Below are positions 40,751 to 49,173 of a stretch of 64,000 bases of DNA, one piece after another (position 1 is the stretch's first letter; each line of letters starts with the position of its first letter). The stretch is taken from NCBI GenBank assembly GCA_902520725.1, contig CABYPB010000006.1, positions 8,310-72,309 on the forward strand, given 5' to 3'. The notes beneath the pieces are model-generated. The model was not told where the DNA came from. It saw nothing but the letters and a program-made list of their open reading frames with translations, and made no database searches. This DNA is from an uncultured SAR86 cluster bacterium (GTDB taxonomy: Bacteria; Pseudomonadota; Gammaproteobacteria; Magnimaribacterales; D2472). The position numbers were made by a program, and so were the translations under genes.

Positions 40751-41563
40751 TCAATTTTCCTTAATGACCTTAAGGGCACCTAGAACATTACCATATTCTC
40801 TATTATCTGCAAAATTTCCTTTTACATTCGCCAGCTTCAGTCTATCCAGAATACCAATTTTAATAGTCTTATTTAAAGAGGTTCTTCCTAAAAAATAAAC
40901 CTCGTCTAGGCCGCATATCATTGCATTAAGATATGAAATAGTTCCAATAACCTCTCCAATCATATTTGAAAGAGATGCTGCTATATCTTCTGATGAGTGT
41001 TTTTTAATAATTTTTCCTTTAACAAAATTTGATGCAGTAATCTCTGGATAAAGTGATCCAATTTCATTAACTGCATCACCTATTAGTAAATCTAGCGATT
41101 CTCTTTTACCAGAGCTTGCTAATTCTTCTATTTGAGATGGTTTATTTGTACCGATTATATAATTTGAAAGTCCTTGCAAAGTGCCTCCACCAATAGATAT
41201 ACCACCCAAATGATTAAATTTTTTATCTGCATGATAAATACAAGCAGTTCCAGTTCCTGCACTAATAGCTACGAATGGCTTATTATTAATACCATATAAC
41301 TCAATTGCTCCATAGCCAATTGCATCAACTTCATTAACCTTGATAATGGGTATATTATTGAATGAATTATTTAAATTACTCGATTTACCACCAGTAACTG
41401 CAATTTTTTCTACTAGATCTATATTTAACTTAATAAAATCAAATATCTCTAATAAAAAATCGTTATTTATTTTTTTTGAAGGCATAGAAAAAAATTCTAA
41501 ATTACTCTTATTAGAAATAGCTACATCTGTGTTAGTAATACCGAAATCAATTCCAACTATCAT
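40751..41563 (-). CDS. coaW: Type II pantothenate kinase (CoaW-like, ASKHA fold)
   Basis: 'IVGIDFGITNTD', 'AISAGTGTA', 'GGISIGGGTLQGLSNYI', 'TASNF' and 'YGNVLGAL' parallel S. aureus CoaW 'KVGIDAGGTLIK', 'NVGTGTS', 'GGIGTGGGMIQGLGYLL', 'TAANFG' and 'SGAIGAL' (recalled). Confidence 0.65.
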   Translation of the reverse strand: MIVGIDFGITNTDVAISNKSNLEFFSMPSKKINNDFLLEIFDFIKLNIDLVEKIAVTGGKSSNLNNSFNNIPIIKVNEVDAIGYGAIELYGINNKPFVAISAGTGTACIYHADKKFNHLGGISIGGGTLQGLSNYIIGTNKPSQIEELASSGKRESLDLLIGDAVNEIGSLYPEITASNFVKGKIIKKHSSEDIAASLSNMIGEVIGTISYLNAMICGLDEVYFLGRTSLNKTIKIGILDRLKLANVKGNFADNREYGNVLGALKVIKEN

Positions 41564-41949
41564 TTTTCTTTTGATAAAATTAACAGACCAGCCAGAATTC
41601 CAAGATTTTTCACAAAATTTTGTATTTCATGTCCTTGGTCAGGACTTCCCTTAAGATTCCAAAAGTCATGTATATAAAAATTGATTAATAAAGTTGTGAT
41701 AACCAAGCTTATTGAGCTTACTTTAATATTTTTCCCAAAAATTATCCAAATGCCACAGACAATTTGAGTTACAGCAATCAGTGAGAGTGAAAATGATGGT
41801 AAGGGAACCTCCTTGCTAATAACAACACTAAGGTTATCTGAAAATAGAAGAATTTTTGCAAGTCCTGGCAGTAAGAAATAAACTCCAATCAAAACTCTAC
41901 CTATAACAAAAAGATTTTTTGTAAGATCAAATGATCTTGAATAGATCAT
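41560..41949 (-). CDS. DoxX-family membrane protein
   Basis: It has 'GRVLIGVYFLLPGLAKI', 'HDFWN', 'FVKNLGILAGLLIL' and four TM helices. An ATGA overlap links it to coaW, and its start abuts the upstream stop. Confidence 0.7.
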   Translation of the reverse strand: MIYSRSFDLTKNLFVIGRVLIGVYFLLPGLAKILLFSDNLSVVISKEVPLPSFSLSLIAVTQIVCGIWIIFGKNIKVSSISLVITTLLINFYIHDFWNLKGSPDQGHEIQNFVKNLGILAGLLILSKEK

Positions 41950-44139
41950 TTATTCTGAGGCATTTTCAGGCCATTCCATGGGTATTTGTTGTTGAGGATT
42001 AAAAACTTTTGACCCTATAGCAGGATAAGCAGTTGAAGCTGCAAAAATTTCCTCTTCACTTAGATACTCACTTGGCGTTAGTTTGAATACATCTAACCCT
42101 CTTGTAATTTCTGTGCCATATATAAAACCGTCGTAATAATATGTTGACCAATAACCACCTGTAATCAGAATATCTTCAAGTATTGGACCTCTATCAAAAT
42201 AAGCTATTTCAAATGGCTTAGAGGAATCTGTGAAATCTATTATTGAGATACCACCTTGATACCAGGCTTGTACAAAAATATCTTTATTTGGAATTGGAAT
42301 GATGGATCCATTATGTGCAACACAATTTTCTGTCTCTAGTTGAGGAGCAGGCATTTTGTAATGACTTTTAAAATCTAACTTATTATCAACGATGTCGTAA
42401 ATTGCATCAGCGCCCCAATCCAGTGGATCCCATGCACGGCATCTTGCTCTTCCACCACCTCCCCATTCATCAGTAAAAATAACTTTTGTACCATCATTAT
42501 TAAAAGTTGCAGAATGCCAATATGCAAAACCAACATCTGTAACAACATCTAGTCTCTTTGGATTATAGGGATCAGAGATATCGAATAATATTCCATTTCC
42601 GGAGCATGCGCCTGCAGCAAGGTTTGCAGATGGAAATACTGTAATATCATGACATTGATTGGTTGTATTTGTATCTTGAGTATCATCACCATGATCTCCA
42701 CCTCTCCATAAACCAGCAATGTTACCTGTTTCTAAGTCCATAAAAACTTTTGGGCTTTTTACAATTTTTGATTTTGAGGGATTATTAACTGGTATTTCAA
42801 TGATATCGATTGAGAAATAGGATGAACCTCCTCCATCCCAACCAAAACAATCAGCCTTTTCTTCATTGTCTCTAACACGTCCTGTACCAGAATTATAAAC
42901 AATAATTTTAGCTTCTTTTTTTGAGGACGATACAACAGAATGTGTATGTGAACCTCTGCATGTTTGGACAGCTCCTACCTGTTTTGGCTCATATAAATTA
43001 GAAATATCAAAAATTCTAATTCCTCTAAATCTTTCAGGACTAGAATCTCTATTCACTCCTTCTAAACCACAGTCTATTCTGCTTCTATTCTCTTCAACTG
43101 ACATAATTAAAAGGTTATCTACTATAGAAACATCTCCTTGTCCGCCAGGACATACCACTGATGAAACTAGATTTGGAATACCACTATCACTAAGTTCATA
43201 AATATTGAATCCATGATAGCTACCTGCTACTAAAATATTATCTTTGAAGGCCATATCAGTGTTAGCAAAAGACAACATTGGCGATCTTAAGGATCTAGAA
43301 ATTTCTGCAGTTGTTTTATTTTCGTTATCTTCAGTTAAATCTTCTGAACCTTTTTCAGCTGGATTTTCAGGATCAAAAAAACCTGTTGGCTTTTGAAGGG
43401 ATGTTACTAGCTCCATATTCAAGATAGCCTCTTCAGCAATGAATAAACCTGCTGCTAATCCAGATCTAGGATCATCTGATAATCCAACCAATATAATGTT
43501 CATTCTTTCTATTTCTACACCTTGATCATTTATGAGGTCAGAAACAAATTCATTCAAGATTGGATCATATGAATTGCCTGGATATTTCTTCAATTCCTCA
43601 ACCATTTCTAATGCACCATCATGATGATTGATCATTAATTTTAAAAACAATCTATCAAAATCGGTACCGTTAGAATTTTTTAAGTCATCAAGTTGTTTTG
43701 GTGTTGCCATTCCTTCCATTTTCATAGATGCATGCATTTTATGATTTTGGTGACCATTGTTTGCAACATTATTAAATTCATCTCTATCTTTTAACCAGCT
43801 TTCCATAAAATTAATTTCATCTTTTTGAGAGGCATCAATTCTTTTAGCTAGGTCGATTATTGTTTCATTATTAGTTCTGATGTCAGCCATCTCAGACATT
43901 AATATTGCTTGTTCGTGATGGACAATCATCCCTTGAAGGAATTTAACATCAGCATTTATATATGATGTATTTGCAATATTTGTCGCTTCAGATTCATTTA
44001 AAACTTTTGATGGATATCCAGGAGCACCAGGTTGAATTATTGGAGCATTTTCATTATTGTTAGCCACTAATAACTGGTTTGAAAGTACTAAAATATATAA
44101 AATTACATAGCTCCTTATAAATAAATTATTCTTTTTCAT
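41950..44139 (-). CDS. Exported DUF305 (HH-motif four-helix metal-binding) + LVIVD-repeat beta-propeller fusion protein
   Basis: I prefer the start at MKKNNLFIRSYVILYILVL (44139). It contains two DUF305 halves, 'FLQGMIVHHEQAILMSE..Q..EINFMESWL' and 'FLKLMINHHDGALEMVE..Q..EIERMN'. Repeated 'G..i.DiS.p..P' LVIVD-like blades follow. Confidence 0.75.
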   Translation of the reverse strand: MKKNNLFIRSYVILYILVLSNQLLVANNNENAPIIQPGAPGYPSKVLNESEATNIANTSYINADVKFLQGMIVHHEQAILMSEMADIRTNNETIIDLAKRIDASQKDEINFMESWLKDRDEFNNVANNGHQNHKMHASMKMEGMATPKQLDDLKNSNGTDFDRLFLKLMINHHDGALEMVEELKKYPGNSYDPILNEFVSDLINDQGVEIERMNIILVGLSDDPRSGLAAGLFIAEEAILNMELVTSLQKPTGFFDPENPAEKGSEDLTEDNENKTTAEISRSLRSPMLSFANTDMAFKDNILVAGSYHGFNIYELSDSGIPNLVSSVVCPGGQGDVSIVDNLLIMSVEENRSRIDCGLEGVNRDSSPERFRGIRIFDISNLYEPKQVGAVQTCRGSHTHSVVSSSKKEAKIIVYNSGTGRVRDNEEKADCFGWDGGGSSYFSIDIIEIPVNNPSKSKIVKSPKVFMDLETGNIAGLWRGGDHGDDTQDTNTTNQCHDITVFPSANLAAGACSGNGILFDISDPYNPKRLDVVTDVGFAYWHSATFNNDGTKVIFTDEWGGGGRARCRAWDPLDWGADAIYDIVDNKLDFKSHYKMPAPQLETENCVAHNGSIIPIPNKDIFVQAWYQGGISIIDFTDSSKPFEIAYFDRGPILEDILITGGYWSTYYYDGFIYGTEITRGLDVFKLTPSEYLSEEEIFAASTAYPAIGSKVFNPQQQIPMEWPENASE

Positions 44140-44347
44140 CTTCTGATACCTCTTTTGCTTTACCTTCAATAATATTTGATTCTTTTTTATTTTTTCCAAA
44201 TCTTAACCACAACCAGGACCAGTTCATTCTTCTTGGCTCTTTAAATGACTCTATTTGTTTTTTCGAAGCTCTAATCCTCAAAAGATAGAAAAACACTCCA
44301 AAAGCAAAAATGCCAACAATCAGAATAAAAGGATTACCAGATAACAC
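44126..44347 (-). CDS. Small membrane protein (73 aa)
   Basis: Its GTG start shares one nt with the upstream TAG stop. It has one clear TM helix ('PFILIVGIFAFGVFFYLL') and overlaps the next gene by about 14 nt. No homology was recognised. Confidence 0.4.
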   Translation of the reverse strand: MLSGNPFILIVGIFAFGVFFYLLRIRASKKQIESFKEPRRMNWSWLWLRFGKNKKESNIIEGKAKEVSEDEKE

Positions 44348-45140: not shown

Positions 45141-46247
45141 TTAAATCGCCTCAGGTATTTGGCCAAACTTTTCTAAAGGCTTCCTCATTTCAGCCCAGTC
45201 ACATTCAAAGTCATCTGGTGCTTGCTCATATTCAAGCAAACCTAAAGCTTCAAATTTAGGCCTTACAGAATCAGTTAATAATCCAATTCTAGATAGATTT
45301 GGGATTACCCTTGAAAATAAGAAATTTCTAAACATTTCAAATGACTTTGTTTCCATTTGAAAATTTCTAGCTTCTTCTTCAGACATATTTAGAAATCTTT
45401 GCTCAGCCTTAGTATTGATTAATCTTTCTCTTGAAATAACACATGCTTCATAAGCGAATTCAGCTCTTTCTTCGATTTCTTCTGGCGAAAGCGTTTTAAT
45501 GAAATCTTCAAGATAGTTAATACCAAATGTTACATGACGCGCTTCATCCCTTACAACATAATGCAAAAGCTGTTTTAAAAGAGGGTCTTTAGTAATAGCC
45601 TTAAGCATCTGAAAAGCTGCAAGTGCAAGTCCTTCAATAATTATTTGCATACCAATGAACTTTAAATCCCATCTTTCATCAGTAAGAATTTTATCTAATA
45701 ATAGCTTTAAAGAAGGATTAATAGGGTAATGAATACCAATTTTATCTTGCAAATATCTATTAAAAACTTCAACATGCCTTGCTTCATCAAATGTTTGAGA
45801 GGCTGCATAAAGTTTCGCATTATAAGTCGGAGCACATGAAGCTAACTGAGAGGCTACTAGAAGCGCTCCTTGTTCTCCATGCAAGAACTGACTCATAAGT
45901 TCAGCTGTTGAGTGTCTATCAAATAATATTTTTTCTTCTTCAGATAGGTTTTCATATGCTTCAAGAGTTTCATGCGGAAGCTGCTCATCAGTTTCAACAA
46001 GTCTTTTATCAGCTGGATGAGTATAATCCCAATTTAAATCTATTGAACCATTCCAATTTAGCTCTTTTCCAAGCTCATATAATTTCTTGATTCGATTATC
46101 TGAAATAGTGTAATCCCAATTATATGAACCAGTTAGAGGTGTATTAAAAATCTCAACAACATCCTCTACATTATTCTGTGTAAGGTTTAGATCTTCATCA
46201 AAGTATATTAAATCTTCAGGCGGTCCATCTTGATTACGAATTTTCAT
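45141..46247 (-). CDS. Ferritin-like di-iron oxygenase (AurF-like family)
   Basis: It has two E-x-x-H ligand motifs, 'DEARHVEVF' and 'RDEARHVTF', plus upstream Glu-containing helices. The size is 368 aa. Confidence 0.65.
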   Translation of the reverse strand: MKIRNQDGPPEDLIYFDEDLNLTQNNVEDVVEIFNTPLTGSYNWDYTISDNRIKKLYELGKELNWNGSIDLNWDYTHPADKRLVETDEQLPHETLEAYENLSEEEKILFDRHSTAELMSQFLHGEQGALLVASQLASCAPTYNAKLYAASQTFDEARHVEVFNRYLQDKIGIHYPINPSLKLLLDKILTDERWDLKFIGMQIIIEGLALAAFQMLKAITKDPLLKQLLHYVVRDEARHVTFGINYLEDFIKTLSPEEIEERAEFAYEACVISRERLINTKAEQRFLNMSEEEARNFQMETKSFEMFRNFLFSRVIPNLSRIGLLTDSVRPKFEALGLLEYEQAPDDFECDWAEMRKPLEKFGQIPEAI

Positions 46248-46310: not shown

Positions 46311-48077
46311 CTAATCATTGAAAAGTTTTGTTAATTCCTCTAATAAAACTTCTCCAAGCTCTTCAGCTCTGTTTATTGTCAGTGCATTCTTATAATATTT
46401 TGTAACATCATGCCCAATTCCTATGGCTTGAAGATCTACAGGACTATCATTTTCAATTTTAGAAATAATTTCTCTTAAATGATTATCAAGAAAATCCTCC
46501 CTATTAGCTGAAAGGGTGCTGTCATCCACAGGAGCTCCATCAGAAATAACGATGAGAATTTTTCTTTCTTCTGGTCTTTTTATTAACCTCTCATGTGACC
46601 ATGCCAGTGCTTCTCCATCAACATTTTCTTTTAATAAGCCTTCTCTTAACATTGCTCCAAAATATTTTCTTGATCTTCTCCAACTATTATCAGCGCTTTT
46701 ATAAATAATATGCCTTATATCATTTAACCTTCCTGGATTAGATTGATTACCCTTAATTACCCATAATTTTTTTGAGTCTCCGCCTTTCCAATGTTTTGTA
46801 GTAAAACCAAGTATTTCAGTTTTAACCTGACATCTCTCCAATGTACTACCAATAATATCAGCACATATTGCTGCCAAACTTATTGACCTTCCTCTCATTG
46901 AACCAGAGTTATCTATTAGCAGTGATACCACAGTATCTTTAAAATTATTTTCAGTTTCTTCTTTGAAGCTTAGAGGATATCCAGGATTAGCAATCACTCT
47001 ATGCAATCTTGCGTTATCTAAAATACCTTCTTCTAGATTGTAATTCCAGCTTGTATTCTGTTTTGCAAGTAGAAGTCTTTGCAGCCTATTTGCTAGCTTC
47101 CCAATGGTAGCTAAATGTGGTTTGATCAAATTATCTAACTGATTTCTTAACCTTATAGATTCATCTGAAGTAACTAGATCCTTTGCATCAATTATCTCAT
47201 CAAAGTTTGTCGTATATATTGAATAATTTTTCTTAATATCATTTGAAAATTGATTGTTAGGATATGTTGCTGCCTCAATCTCTTCTTGAATCGAAGTGTC
47301 ATCTATTGCATCTAAAGATTCTTTAAGATCATCATCAAATTCGCCTTGGAAATCTTTAAAGTCATTTTCGTCGCTATCGCTTAACTCAGATTCTGCTTCT
47401 ATATCCTCATTTTCAATATCATTAGTTGAACCAGGTGAATCAGCAGGATCTATTTCTTCGTCTTCTTCAGAGACATCTTTAAAAAGATTTAATTTTTCAA
47501 GGAACTTCAAAGATAATTTTTTAAATTTTTCTTGATCTTTAATATTTTGAATAAGTGAATCACCGATAGATTCTGAAGATTTATCTAATTTATATTTTTC
47601 TTTAAAAATTTGAATAATATTTAAAGACTCATCATTTAAATTAAATTTTGCTAAGCTTTTTAACCAAAGATTTGCGCCATAGGACAAAAAATTAAGAGAT
47701 TTTTTATCATGCATATTTAAGCTTCTCTGGTTGAGATATTCAGAAATATTTTTTTTAGCTCCTATATACTTATCGGATCCGAGTAGCTCAACTCTGGATA
47801 TTTCAAGCTCATTAAATATCATTCTTGCTGGCAAAGTAAGAGATACTTCCTGAGTTTTTTTGTGATAAAGATGCCAGAAGGCTTGATAGTCTGATTCTCC
47901 TCTCCATTTGTTTATATCTTTAGAGGATCTAGGAGCAGATGGAATAATAATATTTTTATCGACTGGAGGTCTTTGTGATAAACCGGTGCTTGATGTTAAC
48001 TCCTTATTTTTAGATATTGCTTTTACAGAGGAAAAAGCAGCTTCATGAAGTCTATCTCTATTTTTATTCCAACTCAT
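46311..48077 (-). CDS. cobT: CobT-like protein (acidic linker + C-terminal von Willebrand A domain)
   Basis: It has a long acidic stretch '[12 protein letters not shown]...[11 protein letters not shown]' and a VWA MIDAS motif '[11 protein letters not shown]'. The overall layout matches aerobic cobaltochelatase subunit CobT. Confidence 0.75.
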
Positions 48078-48094
48078 GTGAAGTTTTAATTTTT

Positions 48095-49063
48095 TTAATT
48101 ATTTTCAATTTCTATATCAAAACATCTTTGAAAATATTCAGAGATAATAGATTTTTCAATATCATCACATTTATTTAAAAAGCTTAACTTGAAGGAGGCT
48201 GTAAGATCTTTAAATATTTTATAATTTTGACCCCATGATATTACTGTTCTTGGTGACATTAATGTTGAAATATCACCATTTGCGAATCCCGATCTCGTTA
48301 AATTAGCAAGTTTTATCATTTTTTTAACAATCTCTTGATTTTTAGCACCCTTTACAGCGCCTAATTTAGAAATAACTACTTTAAACTCTTGTTTTGGATC
48401 AAGATAGTTTAGTGTAGAAAGTATGTGCCATCTATCTAATTGACCTTGATTAATTTGTTGTGTGCCATGATATAAGCCAGTCATATCTCCCAAGCCAACA
48501 GTATTTGTTGTTGCAAATAACCTAAAGCTAGAGTGTGGAGTTATAATTTTATTTTGATCTAGTAAAGTCAACTTACCCTCAACTTCAAGTATTCTTTGAA
48601 TAACAAACATTACATCAGGCCTACCTGCATCATATTCATCAAAGACTAACGCAACAGGATTTTGGATTGACCAGGGCAACAGACCTTCTTGGAATTCGGT
48701 AATTTGTTTTCCATCATTTACCTTGATCGCATCTTTACCTAATAAATCAATTCTGCTTATATGACTATCAAGATTAATTCGCACGCATGGCCAATTCAAT
48801 CTAGCAGCTATTTGCTCAATATGTGTTGATTTGCCTGTTCCATGGAAACCTTGGACCATAACTCTTCTATTATGTTCAAAACCAGCAAGTATTGATAAAG
48901 TCGTATCCTTATCAAATACGTATGAACTATCCACTTCAGGAACCCAATCAGATTTATTTTTGAAGCCTTTCACAGCAAGTTTTGAATCTATATTGAAAAC
49001 CTCTGAGACATTATATCTATGATCAGGCTTGACTGGTAAATCTATATTTTTATTAATTGTCAT
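48095..49063 (-). CDS. cobS: CobS-like MoxR-type AAA+ ATPase
   Basis: It has Walker A 'GFHGTGKST', Walker B 'LVFDEYD', 'FRLFATTNT' and 'LDRW'. At 322 aa it has the length and pattern of CobS. Confidence 0.8.
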
Positions 49064-49173
49064 TTTTTAAAAAACTTTGTTTTTGGACTGCATATCCTAC
49101 CTTTTGAGAGTATAAAGTTCTAGTTTTTTTATAAACAATGTAAGATAGCCTTATTGAAGTTAGAGTAAGAGAT

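Follow-up and report, generated by a model that had tools for sequence, protein, structure and literature searches.

The stretch of DNA analysed here (64,000 nucleotides, referred to below at its full length as the window) belongs to an uncultured SAR86 cluster bacterium of the Gammaproteobacteria (order Magnimaribacterales; GenBank assembly GCA_902520725.1, contig CABYPB010000006.1, positions 8,310 to 72,309). Two adjacent, co-directional open reading frames (ORFs) in this window encode homologues of CobS and CobT, the small subunits of the aerobic cobaltochelatase CobN-CobS-CobT; the subject of this report is this pair, which was found in a genome and an order in which no CobN was detected. 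The coordinates of the two genes and of the features that border them are collated in Table 1.

Table 1. Features of the CobS-CobT locus (positions within the window)
Feature	Coordinates	Strand	Evidence
CobS-like AAA+ ATPase, MoxR/dynein-related AAA_5 type, 322 aa	48095..49063	minus	ORF, Pfam, NCBIfam, 9ujv alignment
CobT-like adaptor, 588 aa: divergent N-terminal domain, acidic linker, C-terminal VWA domain	46311..48077	minus	
CobS-CobT spacer, 17 nt, genes adjacent and co-directional	48078..48094	minus	
AurF-like di-iron carboxylate protein of paralogue group A, 368 aa, downstream of CobT after a gap of 63 nt	45141..46247	minus	
Divergent spacer between CobS and the SDR gene, 110 nt, one edge of the CobS-CobT indel	49064..49173		

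The CobS ORF was matched by the Pfam models AAA_5 and CobS_N, and the CobT ORF by CobT and CobT_C (305.7 bits). With the NCBIfam models TIGR01650 (CobS) and TIGR01651 (CobT), scores of 498.2 and 530.3 bits were obtained; these are strong, but the curated equivalog cut-offs, 558.55 and 759 respectively, were not reached. Residues 8-320 of CobS could be aligned with the CobS solved by cryo-EM, 9ujv (E = 1.1e-136) and residues 13-587 of CobT with the solved CobT 9uka (E = 2.7e-135). In the translations, Walker A (GFHGTGKST) and Walker B (ALVFDEYD) of CobS and the MIDAS (metal ion-dependent adhesion site) of the DxSxS type in CobT (DNSGSM) are intact, and an acidic linker occupies approximately residues 200-265 of CobT. 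Almost all of the approximately 110-119 homologues collected retain the three motifs. CobS and CobT were neighbours in 85 of 92 loci and also in every locus examined within the class of the window. As judged by these alignments, the two ORFs encode true, full-length CobS and CobT homologues. A first-pass annotation of the window, made from the letters of the sequence, had identified the pair in the same way; its coordinates proved exact, all motifs that it quoted were found, and the Pfam, NCBIfam and solved-structure alignments agreed with it. Promoter and terminator scans returned the same counts as for shuffled sequence, and an Rfam scan of the window yielded two tRNAs and nothing else.

The absence of partners was determined on a wider set of genomes. 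The assembly of the window's genome measures 1.0 Mb in 30 contigs and is 78.5% complete, and because of this degree of completeness the absence calls were based on relatives: the window's genome was searched together with 60 relatives of its order (61 genomes, 0.9-1.8 Mb, approximately 32% GC), 30 of which are at least 90% complete, with several assembled into 1-4 contigs. No match to CobN/BchH (PF02514) was obtained in any of the 61 genomes, and the same model was matched in five control genomes used as positive control. Among the CobN-negative relatives are single-contig genomes and genomes of 2-4 contigs that are 94-97% complete. The window itself contains neither CobN nor a corrin gene, as had been noted in the first-pass annotation. 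That annotation had also named, ahead of this analysis, a cobN and a complete aerobic B12 pathway elsewhere in the genome as the outcome that would make the pair an ordinary chelatase; the genome-wide scan for cobN and corrin genes was negative in the window's genome and in its relatives. These results support the view that the orphan state of the pair is not confined to the window and extends throughout the genome and the order.

Five genomes from the genus (G000, G002, G018, G035 and G010), four of which are 93-97% complete, were searched for further markers of cobalamin synthesis and use. None of them yielded CbiC/CobH, CobD/CbiB, cobalamin-5'-phosphate synthase or CobO/BtuR, markers of the corrin pathway that provides a cobaltochelatase with its substrate, hydrogenobyrinic acid a,c-diamide, and uses up its product; no B12-binding domain was recorded above cut-off, and no cobalamin riboswitch was found. 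A match to the class II ribonucleotide reductase model NrdJ (392 bits against a cut-off of 399.95) was rejected as a cross-match, the protein in question being the class I NrdA; the ribonucleotide reductase of the genus is of class I, with NrdA scoring 1705.6 bits on NF005544 and NrdB encoded alongside. Because B12-binding domain, NrdJ and cobalamin riboswitch are all missing, the genus appears from its gene content to be B12-independent rather than B12-auxotrophic, and to be free of the usual cobalamin-dependent enzymes. The first-pass annotation, which had assumed the auxotrophy common among streamlined marine heterotrophs, has to be corrected on this point. As a separate observation, MetE was not detected in the five genomes, nor was any protein with a B12-binding domain (MetH); the genus may thus be without both canonical methionine synthases and may rely on reduced sulfur compounds or on another methyltransferase.

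The pair cannot act as a cobaltochelatase, since CobN and a corrin pathway are missing and no cobalamin-dependent enzyme could be detected. The incompleteness of the window's genome leaves room for an ordinary cobaltochelatase whose cobN and aerobic B12 pathway are encoded in unassembled parts of the genome; this explanation is scarcely credible given the order-wide lack of CobN, which extends to the 1-4-contig genomes of 94-97% completeness, and given that the four further pathway markers were absent from the four near-complete genomes of the genus.

A less conventional chelatase was weighed separately. The pair might still be the motor of an enzyme that inserts metal into a tetrapyrrole or another substrate, in which case the large subunit would be non-homologous to CobN or too divergent for recognition, or an imported precursor would serve as the substrate. 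The conservation of CobS and of the VWA domain of CobT is nearly that of true chelatases, and hemE is located approximately 1.7 kb from CobS in the order and also near CobS in genome G247, both of which are in keeping with such a role. Against it stands the inventory of large proteins: the ORFs of at least 1000 aa in the window's genome are all ordinary (GltB, PurL, DnaE, Mfd, CarB, two RND pumps and PutA), so that a hidden large subunit was ruled out for the assembled genome, which contains no CobN-sized protein of an unfamiliar type. The lack of downstream corrin enzymes, B12 users and a riboswitch in the genus genomes also speaks against a chelatase, as does the divergence of CobT. The VWA half of CobT shares approximately 64% identity with the CobT proteins of CobN-bearing genomes, and the N-terminal half approximately 19%; at equal VWA divergence, the identity of the N-terminal half amounts to approximately 0.20 between the order and CobN-bearing genomes versus approximately 0.30 among CobN-bearing genomes, a modest difference, with composition and the non-independence of pairs as confounders. 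In the holoenzyme it is this half that touches CobN, according to the 2026 preprints on the structures of CobS and of CobST(N) (9ujv and 9uka series; bioRxiv 10.64898/2026.07.21.739949 and 10.64898/2026.10.09.757910). The lower identity is consistent with a CobN-facing surface that has been relaxed or repurposed. Taken together, a chelatase with an unfamiliar large subunit or an imported substrate is regarded as unlikely.

Orphan pairs were found to recur widely, as the first-pass annotation had stated. CobS was carried by 15 of the 300 genomes of a sample of the class, and CobN was missing from 12 of these, the three CobN-bearing genomes being G116, G155 and G288. Among 50 named genomes that hold the closest relatives of the window's CobS, 17 lacked CobN; these included Pelagibacteraceae single-cell genomes, two Micavibrio, Acidocella, Novacetimonas cocois, Tistlia and Pseudogemmobacter sonorensis. 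Caulobacter vibrioides, included as a control, had CobS above the cut-off and gave no match to CobN, CbiC or CobD. The placement of CobS on a phylogeny, which had been proposed together with the annotation, was carried out: CobN-bearing and CobN-less genomes were intermixed on the tree, and at least 10 changes of state were required. Pseudogemmobacter (no CobN) was sister to Rhodobacter ruber (CobN present), and Acidocella and Novacetimonas were nested within CobN-bearing Acetobacteraceae. Owing to this interleaving, the orphans do not constitute a separate subfamily. Nor does the curated TIGR01650 cut-off separate chelatase CobS from orphan CobS: G081, G325, G169 and G314 scored above it without a CobN, and G116 and G288 scored below it with one.

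Within the order, CobS was present in 33 of 36 genomes of family f1, in all eight genomes each of families f2 and f3 and in none of the eight genomes of family f4. Its distribution in the class sample is rare and patchy, the closest named relatives are Alphaproteobacteria (62-72% identity), and the class-level copies are dispersed among alphaproteobacterial clades of the tree. The CobS sequences of the order can be held as one clade (p-AU 0.93 in the approximately unbiased (AU) test). The pair probably reached this gammaproteobacterial lineage by an old horizontal transfer, and on the phylogenetic evidence the simplest reading would be one old acquisition before families f1, f2 and f3 diverged. 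A recent phage origin was considered unlikely, the phage CobS sequences being at most 34% identical to that of the window (30-34%). One copy outside the order deserves separate mention: the CobS of G113 (G113:C56:20900-21823, locus L118; 3.2-Mb genome) contains an in-frame TGA and sits on a long branch of the tree, which may reflect either decay of the copy or an error in sequencing.

Selection on the pair was estimated within the genus from nonsynonymous (dN) and synonymous (dS) substitution rates. CobS gave a dN of 0.09, lower than those of HemE (0.21) and GltD (0.14) from the same neighbourhood, and the dN/dS ratios of approximately 0.04 for CobS and approximately 0.09 for CobT are rough because dS was saturated. 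From these substitution rates the pair is taken to be kept under strong purifying selection. The rare occurrence of CobS in the class, the dispersal of its copies among alphaproteobacterial clades and the commonness of cobST in phages could also be accounted for by a horizontally transferred relic in decay, or by a phage-derived auxiliary pair, with no cellular role. Intact motifs, the low dN and retention across three families render this very improbable, and the possible single clade of CobS in the order makes the acquisition an old one; the distance to phage CobS, a GC content of CobS-CobT that equals that of the flanks and a surrounding locus of syntenic chromosome point in the same direction.

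The gene context in Alphaproteobacteria was examined for comparison. In 45 loci (L014, L018, L036, L060, L078 and approximately 40 other alphaproteobacterial loci), the gene immediately upstream of cobS has the same orientation and codes for a protein of approximately 211 aa with a J-domain (HPD motif) at its end. At the alphaproteobacterial loci, bolA was found divergently upstream in 26 cases and rpmB downstream in 12. The J-domain protein gene was located upstream of CobS in 12 of 17 CobN-less and in 19 of 33 CobN-bearing genomes. Since this context of J-domain protein gene, bolA and rpmB occurs with or without CobN, the pair lies outside a cob-operon context even in B12 producers. None of the three genes was present at any of the examined loci of the window's class, where the pair is bare.

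Downstream of CobT, a series of co-directional genes was confirmed with Pfam and NCBIfam models much as the first-pass annotation had listed it: the AurF-like gene, a BI-1 gene (BaxI_1), a 73-aa ORF, a gene for a large DUF305/CopM-like protein, DoxX and a type II pantothenate-kinase-like gene (CoaW). The AurF-like protein scored 46.2 bits with Pfam AurF and shows two EARH motifs in its translation; databases list it as a "ferritin-like domain-containing protein", and among solved structures it comes closest, with weak scores, to the R2-like ligand-binding oxidase and the aldehyde-deformylating oxygenase. The gene order TesB / (short-chain dehydrogenase/reductase, SDR) / CobS-CobT / AurF-like ... 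CoaW is retained in families f1, f2 and f3. BI-1, DUF305 and DoxX are retained within the genus only, and downstream CoaW-like genes are met again throughout the order. Two further observations concern the DUF305 region. The large exported DUF305 protein (window 41560-44347) also gave matches to a choice-of-anchor B segment and to the CopM copper-metallochaperone domain, the latter with 73 bits and thus under its cut-off of 90, and the DoxX protein beside it gave a weak match to the HvfX family for maturation of copper-binding ribosomally synthesised and post-translationally modified peptides; DUF305 and DoxX form a possible copper-handling module.

The first-pass annotation had taken this array as a hint of a chelatase or chaperone role towards a different metalloprotein. 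The corresponding explanation is that the adjacent AurF-like di-iron protein is served by CobS-CobT as an ATP-driven metallochaperone or maturase, in the way that NorQ/NorD acts for the non-haem iron of nitric oxide reductase. A phylogenetic tree divided the AurF-like family into three old paralogue groups (A, B and C), with the copy at the locus in group A. Family f2 has a tandem of groups B and A after CobT and a distal group C copy, f3 has A and C, and f1 and f4 have A only. The conserved adjacency is an argument in favour of this explanation, the order CobS-CobT-AurF-like being kept in three families despite CobS identities of only approximately 70% between families. The anciently diverged group B copy of f2 is situated directly after CobT, between CobT and the group A copy; the copy of G113, a member of another family, also belongs to group B and lies divergently beside CobS; and f4 lacks both CobS-CobT and group B. 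In the class sample, CobS was found in 4 of 7 genomes with an AurF-like gene versus 11 of 293 without.

The evidence from gene loss and from other carriers runs the other way. The AurF-like gene forms the second edge of the CobS-CobT indel: in all eight f4 genomes, the orthologous group A gene remains at the same site and directly abuts the SDR gene, with CobS-CobT cleanly gone, and in f1 and f3 CobS-CobT is present without group B. CobS is missing from G067 and G075, both of which carry AurF-like genes. An AurF-like gene is missing from ten other genomes of the class that carry CobS, none was found in five alphaproteobacterial CobN-less genomes, and none lay within 8 kb at 79 further loci. 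An obligate partnership was ruled out on the basis of f4, the class census and the alphaproteobacterial CobN-less genomes. An independent second juxtaposition in G113 could not be sustained either, as the CobS sequences of the order, G113 and G247 are allowed as one clade by the AU test (p-AU 0.86) and group B is shared; with a single clade permitted, all CobS/AurF-like adjacencies can descend from one ancestral juxtaposition, preserved in streamlined genomes that are highly syntenic. The co-occurrence statistics that the annotation had called for revealed an enrichment between kin. The suggested service to the AurF-like protein or the array is weakly supported: the adjacency in f1-f3 speaks for it, and the persistence of the f4 gene without the pair and of most other carriers without the gene tells against it. 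The AurF-like protein is most likely only a neighbour of the pair, and a role as the client is considered unlikely. A narrower form, equally unlikely, would have the pair enter the lineage (or leave f4) as a block with the group B AurF-like gene and perform ATP-driven loading or repair of di-iron oxidases with iron or manganese; if true, this would supply the first non-CobN client for an orphan cobaltochelatase motor.

The explanation preferred here is that CobS-CobT is a functional motor with a CobN-independent job, and not a cobaltochelatase, in a lineage without a B12 pathway; a probability of roughly 0.72 is assigned to it. Orphan pairs arise repeatedly, either by loss of CobN and the B12 pathway or by transfer of the pair alone, and the recurrent retention of the pair after loss of CobN implies the second, CobN-independent job. 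By analogy with the solved holoenzyme, binding and hydrolysis of ATP in the CobS ring would drive CobT, and the MIDAS-bearing VWA domain of CobT would dock on a client other than CobN, which would thereby be remodelled or loaded with metal. The following points weigh against this explanation. The lack of CobN in the window's own genome depends on its relatives; the saturation of dS loosens the estimates of selection; no client of CobS-CobT was identified in this analysis; and no paper was found in the literature that demonstrates a CobN-independent activity or role of CobS-CobT.

The result has consequences for annotation and for the search for the second function. Annotation pipelines and metagenomic B12 surveys in which cobS or cobT serve as markers of cobalamin synthesis will wrongly credit this very abundant marine lineage, SAR11 and many other genomes with a portion of that pathway. 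The conservation of the motor, together with its persistence in genomes that rank among the smallest of free-living organisms and its repeated retention after loss of CobN, implies that the second function is an important one. To the known cases, the window adds a clean empty-site comparison (family f4) and evidence against B12 use in the genus. Caulobacter, which has the same orphan pair, is a tractable carrier in which the second function could be sought.

Among known systems, the aerobic (class I) cobaltochelatase CobN-CobS-CobT (EC 6.6.1.2) is alike in domain order, in the Walker and MIDAS motifs and in the adjacency of the pair. It differs from the situation in the window in that here CobN, the substrate pathway and the use of B12 in the genus are all missing, the proteins score below the NCBIfam equivalog cut-offs and the N-terminal half of CobT is unusually divergent. 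The two 2026 preprints on the CobST(N) structures contain no discussion of orphan pairs. The phage-borne genes cobS and cobT (cyanophages, pelagimyophages and haloarchaeal tailed viruses) also form a pair without CobN, and are treated in the literature as classic auxiliary genes whose function is unproven (PMC7029224, PMC9599517, PMC8651126); the published idea that they hijack the CobN of the host is inapplicable here, as a CobN was found in no genome of the order that was searched. The MoxR-type AAA+/VWA maturation pairs CbbQ/CbbO and NorQ/NorD, and likewise Midasin, combine an ATPase of the AAA_5 type with an adjacent VWA-MIDAS partner, as the window does. CobS matches the Midasin AAA modules with E = 4e-33 and CbbQ with E = 1.7e-8; these systems are distant in sequence, however, and have known clients that are usually encoded nearby. 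They serve as the working analogy for the action of the pair. The alphaproteobacterial orphans (Pelagibacteraceae, Micavibrio, Acidocella, Novacetimonas and Caulobacter) share the CobS clade at 62-72% identity and have an intact pair without CobN, but in them the J-domain protein gene, bolA and rpmB are usual neighbours, and these do not occur at the loci of the window's class. Rickettsia presumably carries an orphan cobST as well, and this is said to have been remarked upon in a comparative genomics study in 2003. The puzzle itself is thus already known, and the pair in the window is a further member of a widespread class of orphan CobS-CobT pairs.

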